In this document: positions 1,549-21,235 of the stretch, in pieces
How the letters are laid out: each line of letters starts with the position of its first letter
Numbering within the stretch: position 1 is the stretch's first letter
Assembly: GCA_963785635.1 (NCBI GenBank)
Contig: CAWAWB010000025.1
Span: forward strand, 4,729 to 68,728
Length of the DNA: 64,000 nt
Reading direction: 5' to 3'
Source: an uncultured Phycisphaerales bacterium
GTDB taxonomy: Bacteria > Planctomycetota > Phycisphaerae > SM23-33 > FEN-1343
Notes under the pieces: model-generated
What the model saw: only the letters and a program-made list of their open reading frames with translations
What the model was told of the DNA's origin: nothing
Database searches by the model: none
Made by a program: the position numbers and the translations under genes

Positions 1549-3557
<2,009 letters not shown>

Positions 3558-5942: not shown

Positions 5943-7125
5943 CGCGGTGGATGGATGGAAGCCGCGTTTGTGGCGCGTGCGCCTGCTGTCCGGCGTGCGC
6001 ACACTGGCCACGGTGGCGGTGGTTTCTGTGCTGCTGTGGCTGTGGGCGGACCTCGAACGCGAATCCCGCGAGGATGTGACGGTGGCCATCAAGGTCGTGC
6101 CGCCCGCCGGCAGCGACCTGCGCATCATCACGCCGGTAGATCCGGTGAAGGTGAATTTCCGCCTCACCGGCCCGCGCGAGCATCTGGCCGAGGTGGTGCG
6201 GCGTCTGACTGCCGGCGCCGACGCCGGCCAGCAGAATGTGTACGAGGTCCAGGCCAAACCCGAATGGCTGGGGCAGTCGGAAAATGCCATCAGCGTCGAA
6301 GGCGTGCTGCGCCAATGGGACCAGGCCAAGGGCCTGACGCCCAGCGATTGCCGCCCGGCGACCATCCCCGTGAAACTGGACAGGTGGGTCGAGCGCACCG
6401 CCAAGGTCGAACTGTGGACTACAGATAACGCCGCCGTGCGCGACGCCGCGGTGACTCCCGAGCAGGTCAAGGTGCGCGTCCCCTCAAGCCGCCTGGTGGA
6501 TATCGGCCCTGCCCCGATCATCCGCACGCAGCAGCTCAAGCTGGATGGCTACGCCCCCGGCCAGCAGATCAACCGCACCGTGCCTTTGTCGGACACCATA
6601 ATGACTGCGGCCAACGGGCTTCCCGTGCCCGCGCGGCCGGCCGACCCCAAAGAAGTGGCCGTGTCCTTCCGCCTGGGCAGCCCGACGGAGACGCGGGAGT
6701 TCACCGTAAACGTGGAAGTCGTCGCGCCCCCCGAGCTGCTGGAGAAAATTGCCCGCGACGGGCTGCTGCTGGAGCGGCAGGATGGTTCGCCCCTGGGCGA
6801 GTGGCACCTCACGCTGCACGTGCGCGGCTCCAAGGAAGCCCTCCAGAAGGCCAGCGCCGACCCCGGCTCCATACGTGCACTGGTGAAGATCAGCGATTCC
6901 GATTTCCTCCAGACGGCCACGTTCCCGGCCAAGCCGGTCAATGTCATCCTGCCGGCCGGCTTGGAACTGGAAACACCCGCTTCGCCCACGGTTTCCTTCC
7001 GCTTTGTGCCCGCGCACCCCGGCTCCCCGAGCCTGCCGCCGTCGATGCCTGCCCCTTCCGCGATGACGCCAATGCCGTCCGCCGTACCGTCCTCGCCGCT
7101 TACGGAGCCCGGCGGCGGGCAGTGA
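5911..7125 (+). CDS. YbbR/CdaR-like regulator of CdaA (tentative)
   Basis: Overlaps the cdaA 3' end. N-terminal TM followed by repeated beta-rich modules (for example 'VTVAIKVVPPAGSDLRIITPVDPVKVNFRLTGPREHL') that resemble YbbR repeats. Pro-rich tail. The call rests on position after cdaA plus repeat pattern only. Confidence 0.5.
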   Translation: MILKAKPRSPSAVDGWKPRLWRVRLLSGVRTLATVAVVSVLLWLWADLERESREDVTVAIKVVPPAGSDLRIITPVDPVKVNFRLTGPREHLAEVVRRLTAGADAGQQNVYEVQAKPEWLGQSENAISVEGVLRQWDQAKGLTPSDCRPATIPVKLDRWVERTAKVELWTTDNAAVRDAAVTPEQVKVRVPSSRLVDIGPAPIIRTQQLKLDGYAPGQQINRTVPLSDTIMTAANGLPVPARPADPKEVAVSFRLGSPTETREFTVNVEVVAPPELLEKIARDGLLLERQDGSPLGEWHLTLHVRGSKEALQKASADPGSIRALVKISDSDFLQTATFPAKPVNVILPAGLELETPASPTVSFRFVPAHPGSPSLPPSMPAPSAMTPMPSAVPSSPLTEPGGGQ

Positions 7126-7133
7126 GGGTTCTC

Positions 7134-8240
7134 AACCCCTCCCCCTCCTACGGGGGAGGATGGCCCGAAGGGCCAGGTGGGGGTTCTGTTCTCCGGCAGT
7201 TGCTCAAGTCGTAAGCCGCCTTTGAAGTTTGGGATTTGTAGTTTGGAATTTGGGATTTGGCCCGAAGGGCCCTATTTGACCACCGCGCGGTGCAGGTGCA
7301 GATACAAGCAGACATCCACGGCGACCATGATGGCGTTCAGTCCATATAGCCAAGTCACCCAGGGAATCGTTTTGCTCTGGGCGTGAGCCGCCAAACACTT
7401 GGCCACAATCCCGGCCAGGTAGCCCACCAGGATCAGCAGCAGGAAGATCAGGCTCTTGCCGCCAACCGTCCCGGCCCGCCAGGTCTTGAAGATGGAGACC
7501 GGCCAGGAGACCCCGAAGCACACGAGCATCGCCGCTTCGAACCAGTAGGAAAGTTCAATCATCACCTGTCCCGCCAATCAAAGATACAGACTGCGAAGGA
7601 ATCGCCAGACTAAGGGCTGCCATGCGGATTCTAACCCCTCTCCCTTGGGAGAGGGTAGGGTGAGGGTGCAAAACCCCTCCCCCTCCTACGGGGGAGGATG
7701 GCCTTTAGGCCAGGTGGGGGTTCTGTTCTGTCCGTCTTCCCAGGTAGAGCGAGCAACCCTGAGCGCAGTCGAAGGGCTCGCGCAATTCGGCCGTTAACCC
7801 CTCCCCCTCGTACGGGGGAGGATGGCCTTTAGGCCAGGTGGGGGTTCTTGCCCGGCATGTGGCACAGCCGCCCTCGGCTGTGCTCGCAACAGTAGGGCGA
7901 GCAACCCTGAGCGCAGTCGAAGGGCTCGCGCAATCCGGCCGTTAACCCCTCCCCCTCTTACGGGGGAGGATGGCCTTTAGGCCAGGTGGGGGTTCTGTTC
8001 TCCGCGGCAGGCGGTAAGGTATGCAGCAAGGGTGCCATGGCTGCTTTTTTTGCAGCCACGTTCTAATGTGGCACAGCCGCCCCCGGCTGTGCTCCCAAGC
8101 CCTCGCAGAGGGCGTTTGACCATTAGCCCGTGGCGCCGGGTCCTGAGCGAGCGCAGCGAATCGAAGGGCGAGCCCGGGGAAAGGAGCGTTCCCTTTAGAA
8201 TTCTAATTCCGACAGTCCCGCGAACCGAAGGTTCGCGCCT
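7134..8240. repeat. Cluster of composite GC-rich hairpin repeats (REP-like); interrupted by the 7272..7577 gene
   Basis: Motif A 'aacccctccccctc-tacgggggaggatggcc...ggccaggtgggggttct' occurs at 7134-7192, 7672-7728, 7795-7848 and 7943-8002. Motif B 'agggcgagcaaccctgagcgcagtcgaagggctcgcgcaat' occurs at 7745-7794 and 7893-7942, with a degenerate copy at 8141-8180. Motif C 'atgtggcacagccgcc-ctcggctgtgct' occurs at 7857-7885 and 8077-8105. A hairpin 'cgcgaaccgaaggttcgcg' lies at ~8218-8238. Confidence 0.85.
7272..7577 (-). CDS. Small 3-TM membrane protein, PQ-loop/SemiSWEET-like (tentative)
   Basis: About 95-101 aa with three hydrophobic helices. 'SWPVSIFKTWRAGTVGGKSL' resembles the PQ-loop motif region of SemiSWEET-type proteins. 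Confidence 0.4.
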   Translation of the reverse strand: MAGQVMIELSYWFEAAMLVCFGVSWPVSIFKTWRAGTVGGKSLIFLLLILVGYLAGIVAKCLAAHAQSKTIPWVTWLYGLNAIMVAVDVCLYLHLHRAVVK

Positions 8241-8306
8241 ATAAGAATACCTCTGGGAAGCTATTACATAAAACAATAGCAGCCGAATGGGACTAGCACA
8301 AGACGA

Positions 8307-8681
8307 TCATAAAAGTCGAATGCGTTTATTCTTTGCACGATACCGTTCGATAACGTCTCGTTTCTCAAGAGCGCCAACAGCGCGTAGCACTCTTTTCTCA
8401 AATTCGATCCGAGGAGCACCTCGTGTTAGGACCCCCACCGCCTTTAGTACCCGGGATGCCAATGAATCCAAGGTGCAGGAACGGTTTGGACAGCGCGACA
8501 GAGCCTGGATAATGGCATCTTGAATTTCAGCAGCAGTGATTTCTTCAGCTCGGAGACCAGAGGAACGAAAACCAACCTCTGGATCATGGAACAAGCCATC
8601 CTCATCATCTCTTTCAATTTCCTCTGTAACATCATCACCTTCATCACAATCCCCCTCCGCGACATTGGTCTTGGATGCCAT
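8307..8681 (-). CDS. 124-aa protein with acidic N-terminus, coupled to the helicase-nuclease gene
   Basis: Its ATG (8679-8681) lies 1 nt after the TGA of the upstream gene (8683-8685). Same low GC as that gene. The N-terminal 40 aa are rich in D/E ('EGDCDEGDDVTEEIERDDEDG'). The C-terminal ~75 aa are basic and helical ('EIQDAIIQALSRCPNRSCTLDSLASRVLKAVGV...'), which is winged-helix-like by pattern only. Confidence 0.6.
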   Translation of the reverse strand: MASKTNVAEGDCDEGDDVTEEIERDDEDGLFHDPEVGFRSSGLRAEEITAAEIQDAIIQALSRCPNRSCTLDSLASRVLKAVGVLTRGAPRIEFEKRVLRAVGALEKRDVIERYRAKNKRIRLL

Positions 8682-8682
8682 A

Positions 8683-11600
8683 TCATCGCGAAATGCTTGG
8701 ATGAATTCTTCTTTCCTCCAGCGCCAACCAGAGTCCCTTCAAGGCCTCGTCCTCGTTTGCGTAAAAGGCTGACTCTCTGACCCGAAAGAACTCGCATCCG
8801 CAACGTTCCAACTGCCTCTGCCGCTGCATGTCAGCTTCGTAGTGATCGGCCCCATGCCACTTGTCACCATCACATTCGACCGCCAGCCTCGCCTGCCCGC
8901 CCACAACCACGAGATCTATGCGTTTTCCAGCAATTTCGTATTGAGCACGCACTTCAAAACCTTTTCGGAGTAGCCTCAAAGCAACATCGACCTCAAACCA
9001 GCTTTCAAAAGGATCTGGCGGACTCACAATCATCCGATTTTCCTGAAAGGCTCGCCGCTCCAACTCGTCTCGATTGAGCCCCTCAATTTCTGGTTGTTCC
9101 GTATTCTCGAAAAACTCAAGAATTCTTCGCCTGAGACACGAAGTGCTTAGATCATTTGGACTGACGGAATGAAAGAGGATCATTTGATCTCTCGCGCGGC
9201 TCGCCGCGACATTAAAACGTCGAACGTCTGCTGGCTTGGCGAGAGGACCTATTCTCTCATTGCTGGCCGCAACGAGTGACAGCAAAATGATATCACGCTC
9301 ATCGCCTTGAAAACTGTAGGGATTTCCGCAGACTAAACGCCGCCTCTCCATTTCCTCTGCACCCAATCGTTCAAGTAACCTATGTTCAATTACAGCCGCT
9401 TGCGCATCTCCCTGCAGAACAATCACACCCATGGTCTTACCGTCGTATTTGCCATCGCCGCACATCTCAAGAATCTTTTGGACAACGGCTTCGGCTTCCG
9501 GCAGATTTATCGCGCGACTGCCGGTGCCTTCTTTATTGCCCCCGCTTACAAAAATATGCTCCAGCGGGGCTAATCGAGCCCGCCCAAATTGTCGCAAGGG
9601 AATCAATGGCGTTTCAGAATAGCATAAGTCGTTGCTAAAACGGATAATCTCCGGCATACAACGAAAGTGCTCGCGTAACACAATTTGATTGGAGCTATAT
9701 CTTAGTTCGCCATGATCAAAAAGACTCCGATTAATGCCAAATGATGCTTTGAGCTCAAAGTCGTACAGGAATTGATTAATTAACTGGGTAACCCCGTTTA
9801 GAGTGATGCCCTCGGCGTCTGGACTTATCTGTTTGTCGTCACCAACGATTAGAATCTTCTTGGCCATATAAAATAATGGCAGAGCCTCAAAACCGCATTG
9901 TGAGGCTTCGTCAACGATAATCACGTCAAACATTCCTGGTTGTGGGTCTACAGTGTCCCAAACTCGATGCAAAGGCATTACCCAGGCAGGTATCGCCTCA
10001 CGACATTTGGCGAGATTCTTTTGTGCCTCTTTGCGATGAAAGAAATCTTGTTTACCCGTGCCGGACTTCGTAATCTTGCCTACATTCTGTTGCCATGCCT
10101 TCATATTTCTGCGATGATCTTCTGTGAGCCGGGAAAAACAGAATCCCCAGGCATGAAGAGAGGCCAGTTTCGCTATAATCTTCCCAACCTCCTCTTCAAA
10201 TTGATTTGCTCGCCTTATGAGGGCTTGGAAATTGTCTTCCTTAATATATTCCTCGACCCAATATTTGGCTTGTGCCCAATGCCAAGCTTCCACAATACGC
10301 GGCAGTCGCTCACCCCAATATGGATCCGCAAATCCTTGTCTTAAGTCCTTGGTGAGAACTGGAAGTAGGCGATACAACTGTGAGAGATAATCTTCAATCT
10401 TCTGTAGGTAGTGACGCTCCCTATCCAAATCCCGGATTCTGCTCGCAATCTTGATATATCCGTCAATGTCTCGGTTGCGAATTGCCTGCAGCAATTCTTG
10501 CGCGGCGGGGCTTGCGTTTGTCTTGGCTGCGACTAACAATATTGAAGCTTCGACTCTATGTATCTCTTCCGTTGCGCTTCGTTTCAGATTTCGAGCTAAA
10601 GCGAGACGGCAAGATGCGATTAATCTTTCAACCTGAGATTCATCCGACCAAACGGGCTCATATACAGACGGGCACTTGTTCAGGATTTCACGGCATTTCT
10701 CGATAAGGTTCCCAAGCGATAAGACCTCTTCGATGGCATCACACAGAGATTTGAGAGTCGTCAATTGCAGAGAATAGGGACCTTCAGCTTTATCGCATTT
10801 TCCCAACCAGAATGCCCATGCCTTCCCAAGAACGATTCGAACGCGCAGCACATCGTAAAGAACCGAGAAATGGTCCGCAGTCTTGCAAGGGCGGCCGTCA
10901 ACATGCACGCATTGTGTTATATACAGACGATCCTTGACTACTTTAGACCGAAATGGCCATCGGTCTAGCTTGCCACCCTCCTGCAAATGATCTCTTAATA
11001 TGGATGCATCTTCCTGAAGTACTTTGACATCTACGGCAGCAGGAAAACTAACAGTAACATTGTCGGCAACCGTTACCAATGCCTCGACAGCGGCAATTTC
11101 ATTTCTGGTGACACGACATAACTCTCGCCAAACGAACGAATTGCCTTGCAAGACATCACGAAGAGCTTCACTCATCCAGCGGTGTGGTGCCGCCGCGCAG
11201 GTTTTTCGGATTTTTTGGAGATCGCAAGCAGTCCTACAAATCGACTCAACAACTGCCGAGTCGCTCCTGGACAAGAAATCGGCGACGCGTTCATCAGCGC
11301 CATCCTTAGAATTGAGTTCCTCCTCATTAGCCCTCGCCTCATTTTGAACCAGAAGTGCAGAAGTTTCATCAGTCGGCAAGTTTTCAGGACAGACTAGTCT
11401 CAATTCCGCTTGGATTTCTGGCGTGAAATGCCTAAGGGCGGCAAGAACACGCATCAAATCGTTTGGAGAAATCTGACACGTCTTATCCAAGGGGACTTTA
11501 TCTTTAAACCAGCGGTAGGTTTCCTCGTCTCGTTTTACGGCTTCTGCAATGCGGGCTGCTGTCCCTCGATAGGTTCCCTCTGCAATTGATTGTGAATGAA

Positions 11601-13176
11601 TTTCCGATTCTCGGATATCGCGAAGCCGGCGGATAAGTTTAGCTTTCTCTTCCCTAAGCGCCCTGAGATGCTCTTCCAGTTCTCTGAGTTGGTATTGAGC
11701 GTCGTCCTCAATCCACTCATCTTTCTGACGAAGAATACCGCCAACGCTAGATTCCAACGACTGCCTTTCGTCAAGACCATGCCCAAGTAAATTGACGCAA
11801 AGAGGGCGCAATTCAGTCGGAACCAGATCTTCAAGAACACGAAGAGCACGCGGCGTTTTAGCCGTTATGAGAGTCCTTTGACCCGTGGCCAGCAGATGAC
11901 AAATCAGGTTCGCGATAGTGTGGGATTTCCCCGTGCCCGGGGGGCCTTGCACCAGTACCCCATTGGCGGTTCTCATCTTTTCAACGATTCTGCGCTGTTC
12001 CTGGTTCCAAGGTTTTGGGAAAAACACCTCGCCATCGTGTTTTGCATCCGTCTCCTCAAAACCATCATCAGCGGGTATGCCACCACCGGTAGGATGTTCA
12101 ATTAAATCGGCAAACTCGCTAGGAATCTCTTGGCTCTCTGTGATCCGGTCCTTTATCCGTTTGAGGACTTCTGTGAGTCCCTTGCTCGAGCGTTTTCTTA
12201 AGATCAGGGCAGGAGCAAACTCAACGATTGGCGCTCTTGACGGGTGAGCCCTTGAATCCAAGTAACTTTCATACAAGCCTGGTGGATTTATTGAATGTAC
12301 GAGAGCCCTAAGAACGTCCTCAATGCAACCCGACTTCCAAGGATCATCTTCGGCGGCCGCAAGTGAAGATTTTGCGGCCTCTTCCGCTCGCGGTGGTTGT
12401 TCCTCAACATCCAACATGTCAAACTCGGGGCGAACTTTAGCCCCGTCTGTATGAGGGCGGACAATAAACTTCCCCAATCTCGCTTCAAACTCCAAGGTTG
12501 CATCGGCCACAACCAGGTGTCGCCGGATACGCTGCCCGCTTGCAGTCTGCCAACTAAGCAGGCCTATGCCAAGAACTAGTTCATATTCTTCCCCTAGCCT
12601 GAGCTGGTCTTGATGTATAGCAAACAGTCCGGAATAAACGTTGTGAACCTTTTCCCACGCGTCATGCGCCTCCGCCCACGGAAGCCATTTGTCTTGCACA
12701 AAACTATCCCAGGCTGTTTGAATTTCGGGGTATTCGTCGAGTCGCTCAATGTGCGCGATGAATTCCGGTTGATCGGATCCCTCTCGCCATGCAGGGTTCT
12801 TGATTTGTCTAGTAATTTCAAGGAGAAGGTTGGGCAAGTCGGTTTTAATACGAAGAGATGACAGATGAACCCAATCTTGGCACCCAGCCGGAATCGCGGG
12901 CAAACTAGGCTCTCGCCGATTTTGAACCTCTAGCCATTCGTCTTGGTCATGTTCTTCATCAGGTCCCCACGCCTGAGTAAAACATGCTGGGTCATGTGGA
13001 ATGTCCGAAAACCAAAGGACTTTTTGATACTCTTCAATAGAACGAATCAGCTTCGAGCGCAGAGATGCCAGCCGCAGGAGATACTCAATCAGCCGAACTG
13101 CTTTGTCCGCCTGCGTAGGATTGCCTTTGCTTTCCATGATCCATGTGCCCTCGCCCACGCCAAAGACTTGTTCCAA
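8683..13176 (-). CDS. Giant fusion of a DUF4011-like N-domain, an Upf1-like SF1 helicase and a C-terminal PD-(D/E)xK (DUF559/Vsr-like) nuclease
   Basis: Helicase motifs: I 'GPPGTGKS', II 'IIVDEASQ', III 'VGDDKQISP', '[16 protein letters not shown]', '[11 protein letters not shown]', VI '[16 protein letters not shown]'. C-terminus '[26 protein letters not shown]...[11 protein letters not shown]'. N-terminal '[32 protein letters not shown]'. An alternative start is the ATG at 13137 (MESKGNP). Confidence 0.85.
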   Translation of the reverse strand: [1497 protein letters not shown]

Positions 13177-13264
13177 TCAACTTTCAGACGGTTCGGGCCT
13201 CAAAAGCAAACCATAGGCCTCATTCGTCAAGGCTCCAATGGTTGTCCCCCGAACGCGAGAATAC

Positions 13265-13293
13265 ATTTCACGGTCGTCGCGAGTATTTGTCAA
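13265..13293 (-). promoter_or_regulatory. Candidate sigma70-type promoter for the helicase-nuclease operon
   Basis: On the minus strand: TTGACA (13288-13293), a 17-nt spacer, then TGAAAT (13265-13270). It lies ~90 nt upstream of the first possible start. Pattern match only. Confidence 0.3.
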
Positions 13294-13679
13294 GTTTTGT
13301 CAGCTTTCCGCCTCCTCAAGCCCGGCGAACCGGTGCCCTTTCAATCCCATTCCTACAGTCGCGAGCGGCTGCCTCAGGCCCGTTTACGGGCCTTCGCCCG
13401 CCGCTATCCGGGTATAGACCAGGGCCTTTGGCCCTGGGTAAGAGGTTCCCGTATTAACTCCCATTCCGGCAGTCGCGCGGACCGGCTCGTCCTGCGTAGC
13501 TTTAGCGAAGCGGGGAGGTCCGCGCCCATAGAAATATCTCCCGCCGTTGTTCCGCCATTGTTCTTTCCCCTTCCCCCCAATCCCGCGACCTCGGCGACCA
13601 ATGGCTTGCCAGATTATTCCCACCGCCGCCCCCAATTCCCTTATAATCTCCTCGTTTTGAGGCCCCCGGGAGAACGGTT

Positions 13680-14936
13680 ATGGACGCGGTTGAAACTGTA
13701 AGAAACATCGCCACCGCCGCGCGGCGGGCGGCCAGGAAACTCGCTGTCGCCACCGGTCAGCAGCGCAATCAGGCCCTTTTGCTGGCCGCGGCCCTCATCC
13801 GCAAATCCGCCGGCGACCTCAAGGCCGCCAACGCCATCGACGTCGAGGCCGCCACGAAGGCCGGCCTCTCCTCCGCCATGATCGATCGCCTGCGCCTCAC
13901 CGACAAAGTTATCGAATCCATGGCCAAAGCCCTGGAGCAGATCGCCGCGCAGACCGATCCCGTGGGCCAGACCATCAAGGCGGAGAATCGTCCCGATGGC
14001 CTGCGCATCGAAAAACGCCGCGTGCCCCTCGGCGTCGTGGGCATCATCTATGAGAGCCGGCCCAACGTCACCGCCGATGCGGCGGGCCTGTGCCTCAAGG
14101 CCTCCAGCAGTTGCATCCTGCGGGGCGGCTCCGAGGCCCTCCACTCCAACGTGGCCATCGCCAAGCTGCTCCGCGAGGGAGCGGTTCAGGCGGGCCTGCC
14201 CGCGGATTCCATCACCATGATCGACGTTTCAGACCGGGCCATCGTTCCCGCCATGGCCACCGCCGAAGGGCTCATCGACCTTATTATTCCCCGCGGCGGG
14301 GAGGGCCTGATCCGCGCCGTCGTCCAGGCCGCGACCATTCCCGTGATCAAACATTACACCGGCGTGTGCCACGTGTACGTACACAGCGCGGCCGACCTGG
14401 AAATGGCCCGATCTATCGTCATCAACGCCAAGTGCCAGCGGCCCGGCGTCTGTAACGCGGCGGAAAAACTGCTTGTGGACGAAGCAATCGCCCAAAAGTT
14501 CCTGCCTATGGTCTGCAAAGAACTCAAGGCCAAAGGCGTGGAACTGCGCGGCTGTGAAAAAGCCCGCCAAATCTTCCCCGAAATGTCCGCCGCCACCGAT
14601 GCGGACTGGAACACCGAGTACCTGGAGCTGATTCTCACGGTGGGGGTGGTCAAGGACCTCGACGCGGCCATCGACCACATCAACACCCACAGCAGCAACC
14701 ACACCGATGCCATCGTGACCAGCGATCTGGCCGCGGCGGAGAAATTCGTGGCCGCGGTGGATTCCTCCAGCGTCATGGTCAACGCCTCCACGCGCCTCTC
14801 CGATGGGGGCGTGTATGGTCTGGGGGCCGAGGTGGGCATTTCTACCGACAAGCTCCACGCCCGCGGCCCCATGGGCGCCGAAGACCTGACGACCTATAAG
14901 TGGGTGGTCACGGGTCAGGGTCACTTGCGCGAGTAA
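13680..14936 (+). CDS. proA: Gamma-glutamyl phosphate reductase
   Basis: Full-length aldehyde-dehydrogenase-fold protein. Contains 'RVPLGVVGIIYESRPNVTADAAGLCLKASSSCILRGGSEA' and 'NAKCQRPGVCNAAEKLLV', as in ProA. Confidence 0.9.
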   Translation: MDAVETVRNIATAARRAARKLAVATGQQRNQALLLAAALIRKSAGDLKAANAIDVEAATKAGLSSAMIDRLRLTDKVIESMAKALEQIAAQTDPVGQTIKAENRPDGLRIEKRRVPLGVVGIIYESRPNVTADAAGLCLKASSSCILRGGSEALHSNVAIAKLLREGAVQAGLPADSITMIDVSDRAIVPAMATAEGLIDLIIPRGGEGLIRAVVQAATIPVIKHYTGVCHVYVHSAADLEMARSIVINAKCQRPGVCNAAEKLLVDEAIAQKFLPMVCKELKAKGVELRGCEKARQIFPEMSAATDADWNTEYLELILTVGVVKDLDAAIDHINTHSSNHTDAIVTSDLAAAEKFVAAVDSSSVMVNASTRLSDGGVYGLGAEVGISTDKLHARGPMGAEDLTTYKWVVTGQGHLRE

Positions 14937-19305: not shown

Positions 19306-20964
19306 CTAATCATTAGCATACATGGCCTCGAGGCGCGTGTGCGCCATGGCGAGCCCCGCCGGCAAGTCCATCCTGCCTCCGACGACTTCGATATAGCAGG
19401 CCGATTCGCCCGCGGCGGCCCTGGCCAACGCATCATCAAGCCCCCCGAGCGTCGTGACTTTCGCCGTGAACCAACCGCTACAGCCCAGAGCGGCGGGCAG
19501 GTCGTGATAATTCCAGGGAGCAAGATCGTTATAAACCCAATCCGGATTCTCCTCCAGCGCCCGCTCCACCATGTAGCCCTGGTTGTTGAGAACAAAAATG
19601 ATGGGCCTCAGGCCGTGGCGCCCAATCGTGCCGATGTCGGCGGCAGTCAACTGGTGAGAGCCTTCCCCGGTGAGCAGCACAGTCCGCCGCGATGGGTCGG
19701 CCAACGCAACACCCAGCGTTGCACCAGTGGCCCACCCGATTGACCCCCAGAGGGTCTGGCTGTGCACCTGTGCGCCATCGGGCAGAGGGAGCGGGACGAA
19801 CCCCGAGGTCGTGCTGCCGCTCTCAATGACAATCTGATCCATCGGCCTGAGAAACTCTCGATATCGGGCGTACATCTCAGGCGCGGTAATCGGATCATTT
19901 GGCGAGCCGGCTGGCTGGGACCCAGTCTCCCTGGGCGGCGAGCGGAATCCAAAGTTCTTTCTAACCGACCTGGCCAGCATTTCAAAGACATCGCCCATGC
20001 CAACCGGATTAAAAATCCGGTCTCCCATGCGAACGTAATCGACGTCTATGGTCACGAGCTTCTCGGGCGAAAGCTTCTGTGAGTACGCGGACGTGTTGAT
20101 GTCGTGGAAGCAGACGCCCCCGGCATCAATGACCAGATCCGCGCCCTCGACCGCCTCCAGGACGGCGCGGGACGATGCGGCCCCCGAATACATCCCAACG
20201 AACTGGGGATGAGTCTCGCTCAGCACTCCCTTGTCCATCGCCATCGTGGCGAAGGGGCAGCCCAGCCGCTCGATCAACGCCTGGAGCTTGTCCCGGAGCC
20301 CAAACCGCGTGACCGTGTATGCCGGGAGTACGGCCATCGACCGGGCCGCCTCGATCCGCGCGGCGATTGCCTCCACGGCCTTGGGCAGGTCCGGGCCGCT
20401 GGCGGGCTTTGGGTAGGGGACGGCCTGGCCAGGCGTGATCGGGGTGATGGCGTAATCGGAGGCGACGAGTATATAGGCCGGCTAATTTTGGGCCCGCGCC
20501 GTGCCGATCAGCCGCTCCATTTCGTGGGTGCAGTTGTCGGGAGTGATCACCGCCCAGGCGCACGCCGCCTGTGCGGAGATATTGGCGAAGTTCTGGAACT
20601 CCCCATCGCCGAGCGTGTGGTGGGCCATCTTGTGAACTCGCTGGTGGCGCATCGACGGCATGCCGACGAGGTGAAAGATGCATGACCGTTCGGCCTTGGC
20701 CCCCATCACGCCGTTAAGCGCGGATAGCTCGCCCACGGCATATGTGGTCATCAGCATCGAACAGCCGCGCACGCGGGCGTAGCCATCGGCCGCGTACGCC
20801 GCATCCAGCTCGTTGGAACATCCGATCCAGCGGATCGTTTCGCTGCGCACAATGGCGTCGGAGAGATTGAATGCGTAATCCCCCGGGACGCCGAAGCAGT
20901 CGGTAACTCCCTCGCGAGCAAGACGTTGCACGATGTAATCCGCGACAGTGGTTTGCTCAGCCAT
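19306..20964 (-). CDS. Thiamine-diphosphate-dependent alpha-keto-acid decarboxylase (indolepyruvate/phenylpyruvate decarboxylase family), apparent frameshift ~20440-20485
   Basis: N-terminal piece 'VADYIVQRLAREGVTDCFGVPGDYAFNL...CSNELDAAYAADGYAR'. C-terminal piece contains the TPP motif 'LTGEGSHQLTAADIGTIGRHGLRPIIFVLNNQGY'. The two ORFs are contiguous in different frames. Confidence 0.8.
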
Positions 20965-21235
20965 CGTTGGTTCTCCGCATAGTGGAGCATAGTGAATTCA
21001 GATACCCCTGGCGGCCATGGACTCAGACCGTCGGTTTCATTTGGAATGCTATGCGACTGGCGGGCCGATTCAACCAGCGCCGCCGGCAAGGTGGGTGCGG
21101 AGAACGCGGCCGGGCAAATATCCAAATCAGGTTGTTCTCCGAATAGACCTCATCCGCCACGCTGATTCCGAGTGCATAGAATTCGTTATGTCCGTCGTTT
21201 AGTTTTTTGGGCAAATAAATGAAAGGCAGTCCAAC

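Follow-up and report, generated by a model that had tools for sequence, protein, structure and literature searches.

A low-GC islet in a 64,000-nucleotide stretch of contig CAWAWB010000025.1 (hereafter the window; uncultured Phycisphaerales bacterium, assembly GCA_963785635.1) encodes a giant superfamily 1 (SF1) helicase joined to a PD-(D/E)xK nuclease, which an earlier note on this DNA had read as one half of a two-gene, defence-type module with a small acidic protein as its partner. Our analysis supports another reading, to which we assign a probability of roughly 0.62, namely that only one gene is present in the islet, an orphan giant helicase-nuclease of a kind borne by mobile elements, which a frameshift has split and whose intact relatives have a role in genetic conflicts. 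The supposed partner belongs to this same protein as its C-terminal winged-helix domain. The annotation is corrected accordingly, from an apparent new two-gene defence module to one broken gene, on a contig that carries several disabling lesions. The domain content of the gene, its split, its distribution and its contexts were observed directly and are described first. Coordinates are those of the window, and features of the islet lie on the minus strand unless stated otherwise.

The large gene and its detached C-terminus

The large open reading frame (ORF) translates as the earlier note had it, giving 1497 amino acids (aa) from a TTG at 8683..13176(-), and the 124-aa ORF (8307..8681, minus strand) does open one nucleotide (nt) past its TGA, in another frame. 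Most of the 120 best homologues of the large protein, which come from many phyla and are 63-68% identical to it, are ~1620 aa long, and their ~133 extra residues are C-terminal; the two window products add up to 1621 aa (1497+124). Moreover, the 124-aa ORF aligns with the C-terminal ~90-125 aa of these ~1620-aa homologues at 55-72% identity (E down to 1e-41). Full-length relatives read '...LEERGIFP', followed by an acidic linker of ~50 aa and then by 'SGRRAEEITAAEIQDAI...KAKNRRIRL'; the first of the two window frames ends '...LEERRIHPSISR*' and the second resumes 'MASKTNVAEGDCDEGDD...SGLRAEEITAAEIQDAI...'. The two frames meet at the start of the linker, and therefore a +1 frame change within ~15 nt separates them. 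This lesion zone (8682..8700, minus strand; TCG CGA TGA t ATG GCA) lies between '...LEERRIHPS' and 'MASKTNV...', and the loss of one base there would, judging from the aligned relatives, bring back the usual domain architecture in a ~1610-aa protein. Programmed frameshifting at this site was considered and set aside because CGA-TGA-T contains no slippery sequence.

A hidden Markov model (HMM) built from the tail and run over 92 related loci found the winged helix and the helicase in one ORF at ~33 of the ~36 loci that carry the domain. Separate copies occurred only in the window and at two other loci (L015 and L062), both with an in-frame TAA/TAG inside the linker. In-frame fusion is the rule, and the domain is not conserved beside its homologues as a gene of its own, an outcome that the earlier note had listed as counting against its reading. 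Among 5.8 billion proteins, stand-alone matches to the 124-aa ORF were frame-shifted or fragmentary gene calls alone; the source record does not annotate the ORF, which had no match in Pfam, PADLOC or NCBIfam either.

The description of the partner as a small acidic protein fits its linker only, since residues 1-44 (8550..8681(-)), which correspond to the D/E-rich linker of the full-length homologues and are acidic (isoelectric point 4.05), precede residues 45-124 (8310..8549(-), stop codon 8307-8309), which are basic (isoelectric point 10.3). In an AlphaFold2 model built from 25 sequences, residues 45-124 form a helix-strand-helix-helix-hairpin fold with a pLDDT of 80-90, and residues 1-44 are disordered. 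The top 50 Foldseek matches of the tail in the PDB were all winged-helix domains (among them cullin WHB, PadR/LmrR, Z-alpha, E2F/DP, MukE/F and MarR/Fur), with target-normalised TM-scores reaching 0.75-0.84 but modest E-values (>=5.8e-3). On this model, the detached tail is predicted to be a DNA-binding winged helix.

The true start of the large gene is probably the ATG at 13137, because homologue alignments begin at residues 10-25 of the 1497-aa form and the call of the source record itself is 1484 aa. The gene as now read spans 8683..13137(-), with the TTG at 13176 as an alternative start and the TGA stop at 8683-8685, and its 1484-aa product appears from these comparisons to be a truncated form of a ~1610-aa ancestral protein. 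The first 350 residues of this form (12088..13137(-)) make up a family-specific N-terminal domain containing the LVLGIGLLSWQT... motif, which had been likened to DUF4011 (PF13195). That likeness was not borne out: PF13195 matched neither the window protein (E<=0.1) nor 30 family members (E<=0.01), was present in 0 of 120 relatives of the N-terminal domain by precomputed Pfam, and the whole-protein models of the defence proteins Hhe and ProA align to the C-terminal helicase/nuclease part alone. The AlphaFold2 model of these ~350 aa reached a pLDDT of 84.7. A Foldseek search with it returned no match in the PDB (best E 0.44, TM-score <0.12), and in BFVD a weak match alone, to a phage 'AAA domain protein' (E 4.9e-3, TM-score 0.26).

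The remainder of the protein comprises the first part of an SF1B (Upf1-like) RecA1 domain (AAA_11; 11554..12006(-), Walker A GPPGTGKS at 11923-11946), a mostly helical RecA1 insertion of ~520 aa (9991..11553(-), seen in Pfam as the gap between two AAA_11 stretches), the second part of RecA1 (9733..9990(-), Walker B/motif II DEASQ at 9898-9912 and motif III VGDDKQISP), RecA2 (AAA_12; 9172..9732(-), motifs IV-VI LREHFRCMPEI, QGDERD and RFNVAASRARD) and a PD-(D/E)xK endonuclease of the MTES_1575 or Vsr-DUF559 type (8719..8997(-)). The Pfam search that had been proposed for this protein returned AAA_11 in two pieces (residues 391-541, resuming at ~1063), AAA_12 at 1149-1335 and the MTES_1575 restriction endonuclease (PF18741) at 1394-1486 (E 1.6e-26); DUF559 passed its cut-off barely (22.3 bits vs 20.6). 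All the helicase motifs reported earlier and the RIDLVV.../CGCEFFRV nuclease motif are present in the translation. SF1 motifs I-VI, which include Walker A, Walker B and the arginine-finger motif, are intact and invariant across 30 family members, and in the same members the D..E-x-D/K layout of the nuclease holds at the sequence level, with D1408, E1421, D1423, D1425 and H1428 invariant. By sequence profile, the solved relatives are Upf1-like SF1B helicases alone (Sen1, Upf1, IGHMBP2, DNA2 and Aquarius). Residues 1-390 and 541-1063 had no match in Pfam, PADLOC or NCBIfam; the RecA1 insertion is the least conserved region of the protein (53% vs 76-79% in the catalytic domains), and its comparison with PDB sequences gave nothing meaningful.

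The lesion might also be an artefact of assembly or sequencing, the gene being intact in the organism (~1610 aa, with the winged helix fused) and the frameshift an error in the consensus sequence of a 70,395-nt contig from a draft or metagenome assembly, an account that we regard as possible but clearly the weaker one. Two more genes are broken in the same 64 kb. The normally essential ftsH (1549-3557, plus strand) is frameshifted, with the first transmembrane segment and FtsH_ext (Pfam E 1.5e-5) in ORF 1549-2040, the second transmembrane segment, AAA and Peptidase_M41 in a different frame (1785-3554), and a junction at ~1885-1900; a thiamine pyrophosphate (TPP) enzyme (19309-20997, minus strand) has a single in-frame TAG (20482-20484) inside a conserved motif, with TPP_enzyme_N upstream and TPP_enzyme_M and C downstream. 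With both in the same contig, an assembly error is therefore conceivable, and the detached domain is indeed conserved like the rest of the protein (66-77% vs 65-68% identity). However, the lesion lies outside any homopolymer, and an independent short-read assembly of the same strain (Logan ERR11596056, locus L111), which is 99.88% identical over 11808-14313 and has the same proA neighbour, lacks the GC dinucleotide at 12231-12232, which produces a different, additional frameshift in the N-terminal domain. The helicase-nuclease gene is therefore polymorphic for disabling lesions, which suggests real decay at the population level. Nonsense mutations and interruptions by insertion sequences (ISs) are also frequent elsewhere in the family: the complete genomes of Prosthecochloris and Nitrosococcus contain truncated fragments, and plasmids of Deinococcus and Rhizorhabdus carry copies interrupted by ISs. 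Because of the further deletion in L111 and of the lesions common across the family, the window gene is likely to be in real decay. A test for relaxed selection, in which the window protein showed 22 private changes at invariant columns vs 2-12 in other members, was dropped as confounded, because this protein is the outgroup (mean identity 65% vs 71-80%).

A third account would make the split functional, with a tail-less helicase-nuclease and a linker-winged-helix protein produced by termination-reinitiation at TGAtATG and acting in trans, that is, effectively as two genes. It is consistent with an ATG only 1 nt past the stop, with a winged-helix frame that is intact and free of private substitutions at conserved positions, with an independent interruption of the linker in two other lineages, and with natural tail-less variants, which suggest that the core would work without a fused tail. 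Nevertheless, we judge it improbable, given that three of the ~36 domain-bearing loci show the split, the other two through in-frame stops with no obvious restart, that the ATG has no visible Shine-Dalgarno sequence ahead of it, and that the 124-aa ORF is uncalled in the source record and its stand-alone versions are broken gene calls. Decay of a single gene is the reading retained below.

Relatives, mobile contexts and exchangeable tails

The islet has a G+C content (GC) of 0.46-0.51 over 8501-13000 vs 0.62-0.68 on both flanks, as the earlier note had pointed out, and the codon-position values of the helicase-nuclease gene (GC1/2/3 of 0.61/0.40/0.47) lack the bias of the host, whose neighbouring genes have a GC3 of ~0.8. 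A GC dip also surrounds the copies at L002 and L095-L102. Together with this dip, the 63-68% identical copies found across phyla (Acidobacteriota, Armatimonadota, Planctomycetota, Pseudomonadota, Bacillota, Hydrogenedentes and others), each with different neighbours, sustain the horizontal acquisition proposed for the islet.

The family is large. An exhaustive profile search with the N-terminal domain returned 1,439 clusters at 50% identity (E<=1e-30); among the 150 best matches listed the domain was always N-terminal, and the full-length proteins measured 1,450-2,030 aa. Among species-representative genomes, at least 586 have relatives, at 29-66% identity; they come from across the bacterial phyla and include one archaeal metagenome-assembled genome (MAG). 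At 31 loci of the clade with at least 50% identity, 232 flanking ORFs matched ~250 Pfam families, mostly housekeeping, and no conserved housekeeping context emerged.

In the close clade the commonest immediate neighbour is a small HTH_17 gene, the stop of which overlaps the start of the helicase-nuclease gene. This upstream gene was detected in 16 of the 26 loci at >=60% identity, in 0/12 at 45-60% and in 2/48 below 45%. Furthermore, the pair occupies a fixed slot in a temperate phage, [1286-aa D12-methyltransferase protein]-[HTH_17][helicase-nuclease]-[Mu-F][portal][TerL]...[integrase], and this backbone is shared by ten IMG/VR contigs and several metagenome contigs. The backbone or its remnants were seen in at least 12 loci, including fragments of the methyltransferase or Mu-F genes beside the chromosomal copies L010, L013 and L033. 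Essentially no family members were found in GenBank phages. The 1286-aa protein of this slot (L107, 3692-7552, minus strand; also L095-L101, with fragments in L010-L012) carries a D12-class adenine methyltransferase domain, adjoins the cassette and the head genes, and may be a large phage modification or anti-restriction protein; the L107 cassette itself pairs HTH_17 with an intact 1611-aa gene.

Distant full-length relatives (26-36% identity) were located on plasmids. In Acinetobacter baumannii p3ABAYE (NC_010404.1, 49045-53775; L093) a 1576-aa member directly follows the BREX-1 genes pglX, pglZ and brxL; it is annotated merely as 'AAA domain-containing protein', is followed by an AAA ATPase gene and the toxin-antitoxin genes Phd/YefM and RelE/ParE, and belongs to a widespread clinical Acinetobacter plasmid type. 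Another member lies on a Streptomyces plasmid near TIGR02679/TIGR02680 genes, which we take to be Wadjet JetD/JetC. PADLOC neighbours in a minority of loci comprised a type IIG restriction-modification (R-M) system with SoFic, Avs4, HEC-02, MzaA and mad genes, which need not be enriched near the family.

The window shares none of these surroundings. No HTH_17 gene or remnant was found in it at E<5, its flanks showed no similarity to those of other loci, and no phage remnant accompanies the gene, which therefore appears from these comparisons to be an orphan copy. No flanking direct repeats were found at the borders of the island; likewise, one tyrosine-integrase query found no integrase, as the earlier note had stated, in a search that was not exhaustive. 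In a Pirellulales MAG (JAFGPV010000043.1, L002) a tail-less copy of 1503 aa, without any vestige of the winged helix over the next 900 nt, is likewise separated from ftsH by a few genes, although its orientation is opposite to that in the window; the shared proximity is probably a coincidence, since the FtsH proteins are only 51% identical. Separately, a large share of the metagenomic contigs with the gene are ~5-6 kb long and end within 1 kb of it, as would be expected if a gene shared between genomes or strains of a community breaks assemblies.

What follows the nuclease varies in a modular way: of 86 full-length representatives, ~17 are tail-less and 16 carry a winged helix of the window type, and a Pfam search over 68 tails and three N-terminal extensions identified DUF3320 in 11 of the 68 tails, a GreA/B C-terminal domain in three proteins, the C-terminal domain of the RNA polymerase alpha subunit (alpha-CTD) in one, sigma70 regions 2-4 in one, sigma region 1.1 in one, and single cases of Mrr_N, Rok-WH, PC4, SeqA-C and a Top1 zinc ribbon. 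Within the close clade the second major allele ends in a GreA/B-type tail (15 of the fetched loci), and alleles with GreA/B tails and with winged-helix tails alternate at one phage site. No DUF3320 was found in the window clade by Pfam, and hhalign gave a probability of 14.5% for similarity between the window tail and DUF3320-type tails. In the pair P0250 (1987 aa) and P0286 (2028 aa), one protein has a complete sigma70 (regions 2-4) after the nuclease, scoring up to 258 bits with RpoD models and MzaA-like, and the other carries an N-terminal sigma region 1.1 and a C-terminal DUF3320. A recurrent module of ~80 aa ('ALSHWAK..(x)..W.R.L.Y..G....T.KQA') was noticed in the tails of P0288, P0290, P0328, P0352, P0357 and P0377; Pfam did not match it, and hhalign found it similar neither to the winged-helix nor to the DUF3320-type tails.

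Known systems and possible role

The closest tested counterpart is Hhe (Gao et al., 2020; PADLOC PDLC02194; NCBIfam NF042953, 'DUF4011 domain-containing anti-phage protein Hhe'), likewise a single giant protein with an AAA_11/AAA_12 SF1 helicase, a Vsr/DUF559-type endonuclease and a winged helix-turn-helix (wHTH) type tail in one polypeptide; the DUF3320 tail of Hhe is the same as that of some members of the window family. Hhe is reported to be active against lambda, T3, T7 and PhiV-1, an activity abolished by mutation of its nuclease active site, and a phage gene that counteracts it is on record. The HMM match is collinear over the C-terminal half of the helicase and the nuclease, but only from residue ~1063, and the window protein scores 103.1 bits against the NF042953 cut-off of 2000 (longer relatives, 115-173 bits). 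In contrast to Hhe, the N-terminal ~380 aa of the window protein are not DUF4011 by the Pfam or Hhe models, the window clade has an apparently different wHTH tail, RecA1 contains the ~520-aa insertion, and the close clade is phage-borne with HTH_17.

The best-scoring defence models were ProA (NCBIfam NF058533) and the PADLOC candidate PDC-S37. For ProA the window protein reached 172.3 bits over residues 1077-1488, against a cut-off of 1500, and relatives 204-258 bits; in the longer ones the alignment runs from the helicase through the insertion and the nuclease into the tail (query 380-1726 to model 638-1903), but the N-terminal ~640 model positions were never matched. PDC-S37 matched residues 1076-1490 (E 1.3e-50, 170 bits), with its best stretch at positions 931-1342 of the 1550 of the model. 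A literature search turned up no paper about PLuB, PDC-S37 or a defence function of ProA; the 'ProA' of an Acinetobacter BREX paper is a strain genotype and not a defence protein.

The same restriction endonuclease family (PF18741) and the same order of helicase, nuclease and wHTH tail occur in MTES_1575, an SF-I helicase with a Vsr nuclease and two wHTH domains, for which a role in genomic conflicts was predicted by comparative genomics, and whose wHTH pair overlaps DUF3320 (Anantharaman et al., 2013, PMC3710099). The prototype adds HEPN and transglutaminase domains, both lacking in the window protein, whereas the window type has one wHTH of another sequence family and a distinct N-terminal domain. 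Mokosh (MkoA/MkoC) and Nhi also combine an Upf1-like or COG1112 helicase core with a nuclease in anti-phage defence. Mokosh matched over the C-terminal half of the helicase only (MkoC 2.2e-37, MkoA 6.4e-33) and uses a phospholipase D (PLD) nuclease, while no PLD was found by Pfam in the window protein; the nuclease of Nhi is N-terminal, and the window protein matches Nhi at E 0.03 only. Sen1, Upf1, IGHMBP2, DNA2 and Aquarius have the motif set and accessory insertions in RecA1 in common with the window protein, and DNA2 couples a PD-(D/E)xK nuclease to its helicase, but these are housekeeping RNA- or DNA-processing enzymes with other accessory domains and are not found on mobile elements. The window protein resembles Hhe, ProA and PDC-S37 yet falls outside all three by the thresholds of the models themselves, and is best placed as an unnamed variant of putative single-protein helicase-nuclease conflict genes.

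The intact relatives probably act in conflicts between mobile DNA elements. The defence role claimed for the islet is plausible in so far as close relatives are temperate-phage cargo and distant ones lie beside BREX, R-M/SoFic, Avs4 and presumably Wadjet genes, although such neighbours were found in a minority of loci. Several points weigh against our reading as a whole. About 20% of the full-length representatives end naturally right after the nuclease with no tail, and therefore the 1484-aa product may still be active and the copy not in decay; moreover, the TGAtATG spacing of stop and ATG would permit translational coupling, and the frameshift could be an assembly error in a draft contig of ~70 kb with other suspicious lesions. 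Most chromosomal copies lie amid housekeeping genes, and the known defence neighbours, seen at a minority of loci, may be no commoner than chance would give. No named defence model scores the window protein above its curated cut-off (ProA, 172 vs 1500 bits; Hhe, 103 vs 2000). The family is known from sequence alone, and a gene encoded by phages could serve the phage otherwise than by defence.

Some of these points agree with the alternative that the protein is no conflict gene but a cellular or phage enzyme of nucleic-acid maintenance, for instance a Sen1-like resolver of R-loops or of transcription-replication conflicts, or a DNA-repair helicase-nuclease. The tail modules that bind RNA polymerase (GreA/B-C, sigma70, sigma region 1.1 and alpha-CTD), the solved helicases closest to it (Sen1, Upf1 and DNA2), the housekeeping genes that flank most chromosomal copies, and the core-genome status of a DUF4011 helicase in P. 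aeruginosa all suit such an enzyme. We consider it unlikely, since the family is spread patchily over phyla at ~65% identity with deviant composition, is carried by phages and plasmids, is frequently pseudogenised, lacks a conserved chromosomal context and swaps tails between alleles at one phage site, all of them marks of accessory, conflict-type genes.

Under the reading of a decayed conflict gene, the ancestral protein of ~1610 aa would have consisted, in order, of the N-terminal domain, the SF1B helicase with its ~520-aa RecA1 insertion, the PD-(D/E)xK nuclease, the acidic linker and the basic winged helix, and the +1 frameshift at the start of the linker would end the main protein past the nuclease and leave the 124-aa frame downstream. 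Close relatives would represent an accessory cassette, placed behind the small overlapping HTH_17 gene and between the large D12-methyltransferase and the Mu-F/portal/terminase genes, from which the window copy would have lost the phage backbone and HTH_17 while accumulating lesions. We infer enzymatic activities, polarity and the defence role from sequence: the N-terminal domain and the swappable tail (wHTH, GreA/B-C, sigma70, alpha-CTD or DUF3320) may select or sense the target, the helicase may translocate 5'-3' on single-stranded nucleic acid at the expense of ATP, the nuclease may cut foreign DNA endonucleolytically, and HTH_17 may regulate the cassette. Competing phages or plasmids would thereby be excluded, as has been reported in the case of Hhe.

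A more speculative possibility, to which we give little weight, is that intact members are transcription-coupled immune nucleases, in which terminal modules dock a Sen1/Upf1-like 5'-3' helicase-nuclease on RNA polymerase or promoter DNA. Such an enzyme would track the nascent RNA or the non-template strand of invading DNA and then cut, the structurally unmatched N-terminal domain would be the sensor, and the alternation of tails at a single phage locus would stem from an arms race centred on the hijacking of RNA polymerase. To our knowledge, no described defence system works by the docking of a helicase-nuclease in this transcription-coupled manner.

The window copy itself is ordinary or degenerate, and the interest lies in its family, which comprises more than 1,400 clusters at 50% identity in most bacterial phyla, phages and plasmids, and is captured by no named defence model. 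Its N-terminal domain has a confident structure prediction and no solved structural relative, and its C-terminal modules, several of which bind RNA polymerase, are exchanged, also between alleles at one prophage site. If the intact cassette proves protective, a widespread single-protein system would be added to the Hhe-like group, and it would offer a direct way into how helicase-nucleases choose their targets.

Minor features of the islet

Upstream of the large gene, the low-GC leader of the islet (13177..13340, minus strand) contains, by eye, TTGACA (13293-13288) and TGAAAT (13270-13265) with a 17-nt spacer; a promoter scan reported nothing convincing upstream on this strand. At the other low-GC edge, past the 124-aa ORF, a perfect 8-bp hairpin without a U-tract (CGCGAACC-ttc-GGTTCGCG; 8219..8237, minus strand) was read from the sequence and is a possible transcript end, although the terminator scan did not report it. 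The hairpin-repeat cluster described earlier beside the islet was also recovered, as hairpin-forming direct repeats at 7122-8004 with another pair at 7857/8066. A 94-nt tRNA-Arg(cct) called by ARAGORN at 7648-7741 sits on one copy of the hairpin repeat, was not confirmed by Rfam and was rejected. These intergenic repeats (7122-8004 and 7857-8098) resemble repetitive extragenic palindromic (REP) elements, with a unit of ~61 nt present four times that combines a CCCCTCCCCC...GGGGGAGG hairpin with a GGCC...GGCC hairpin, and the second repeat, in the 7857-8098 region, is a 33-nt hairpin repeat.

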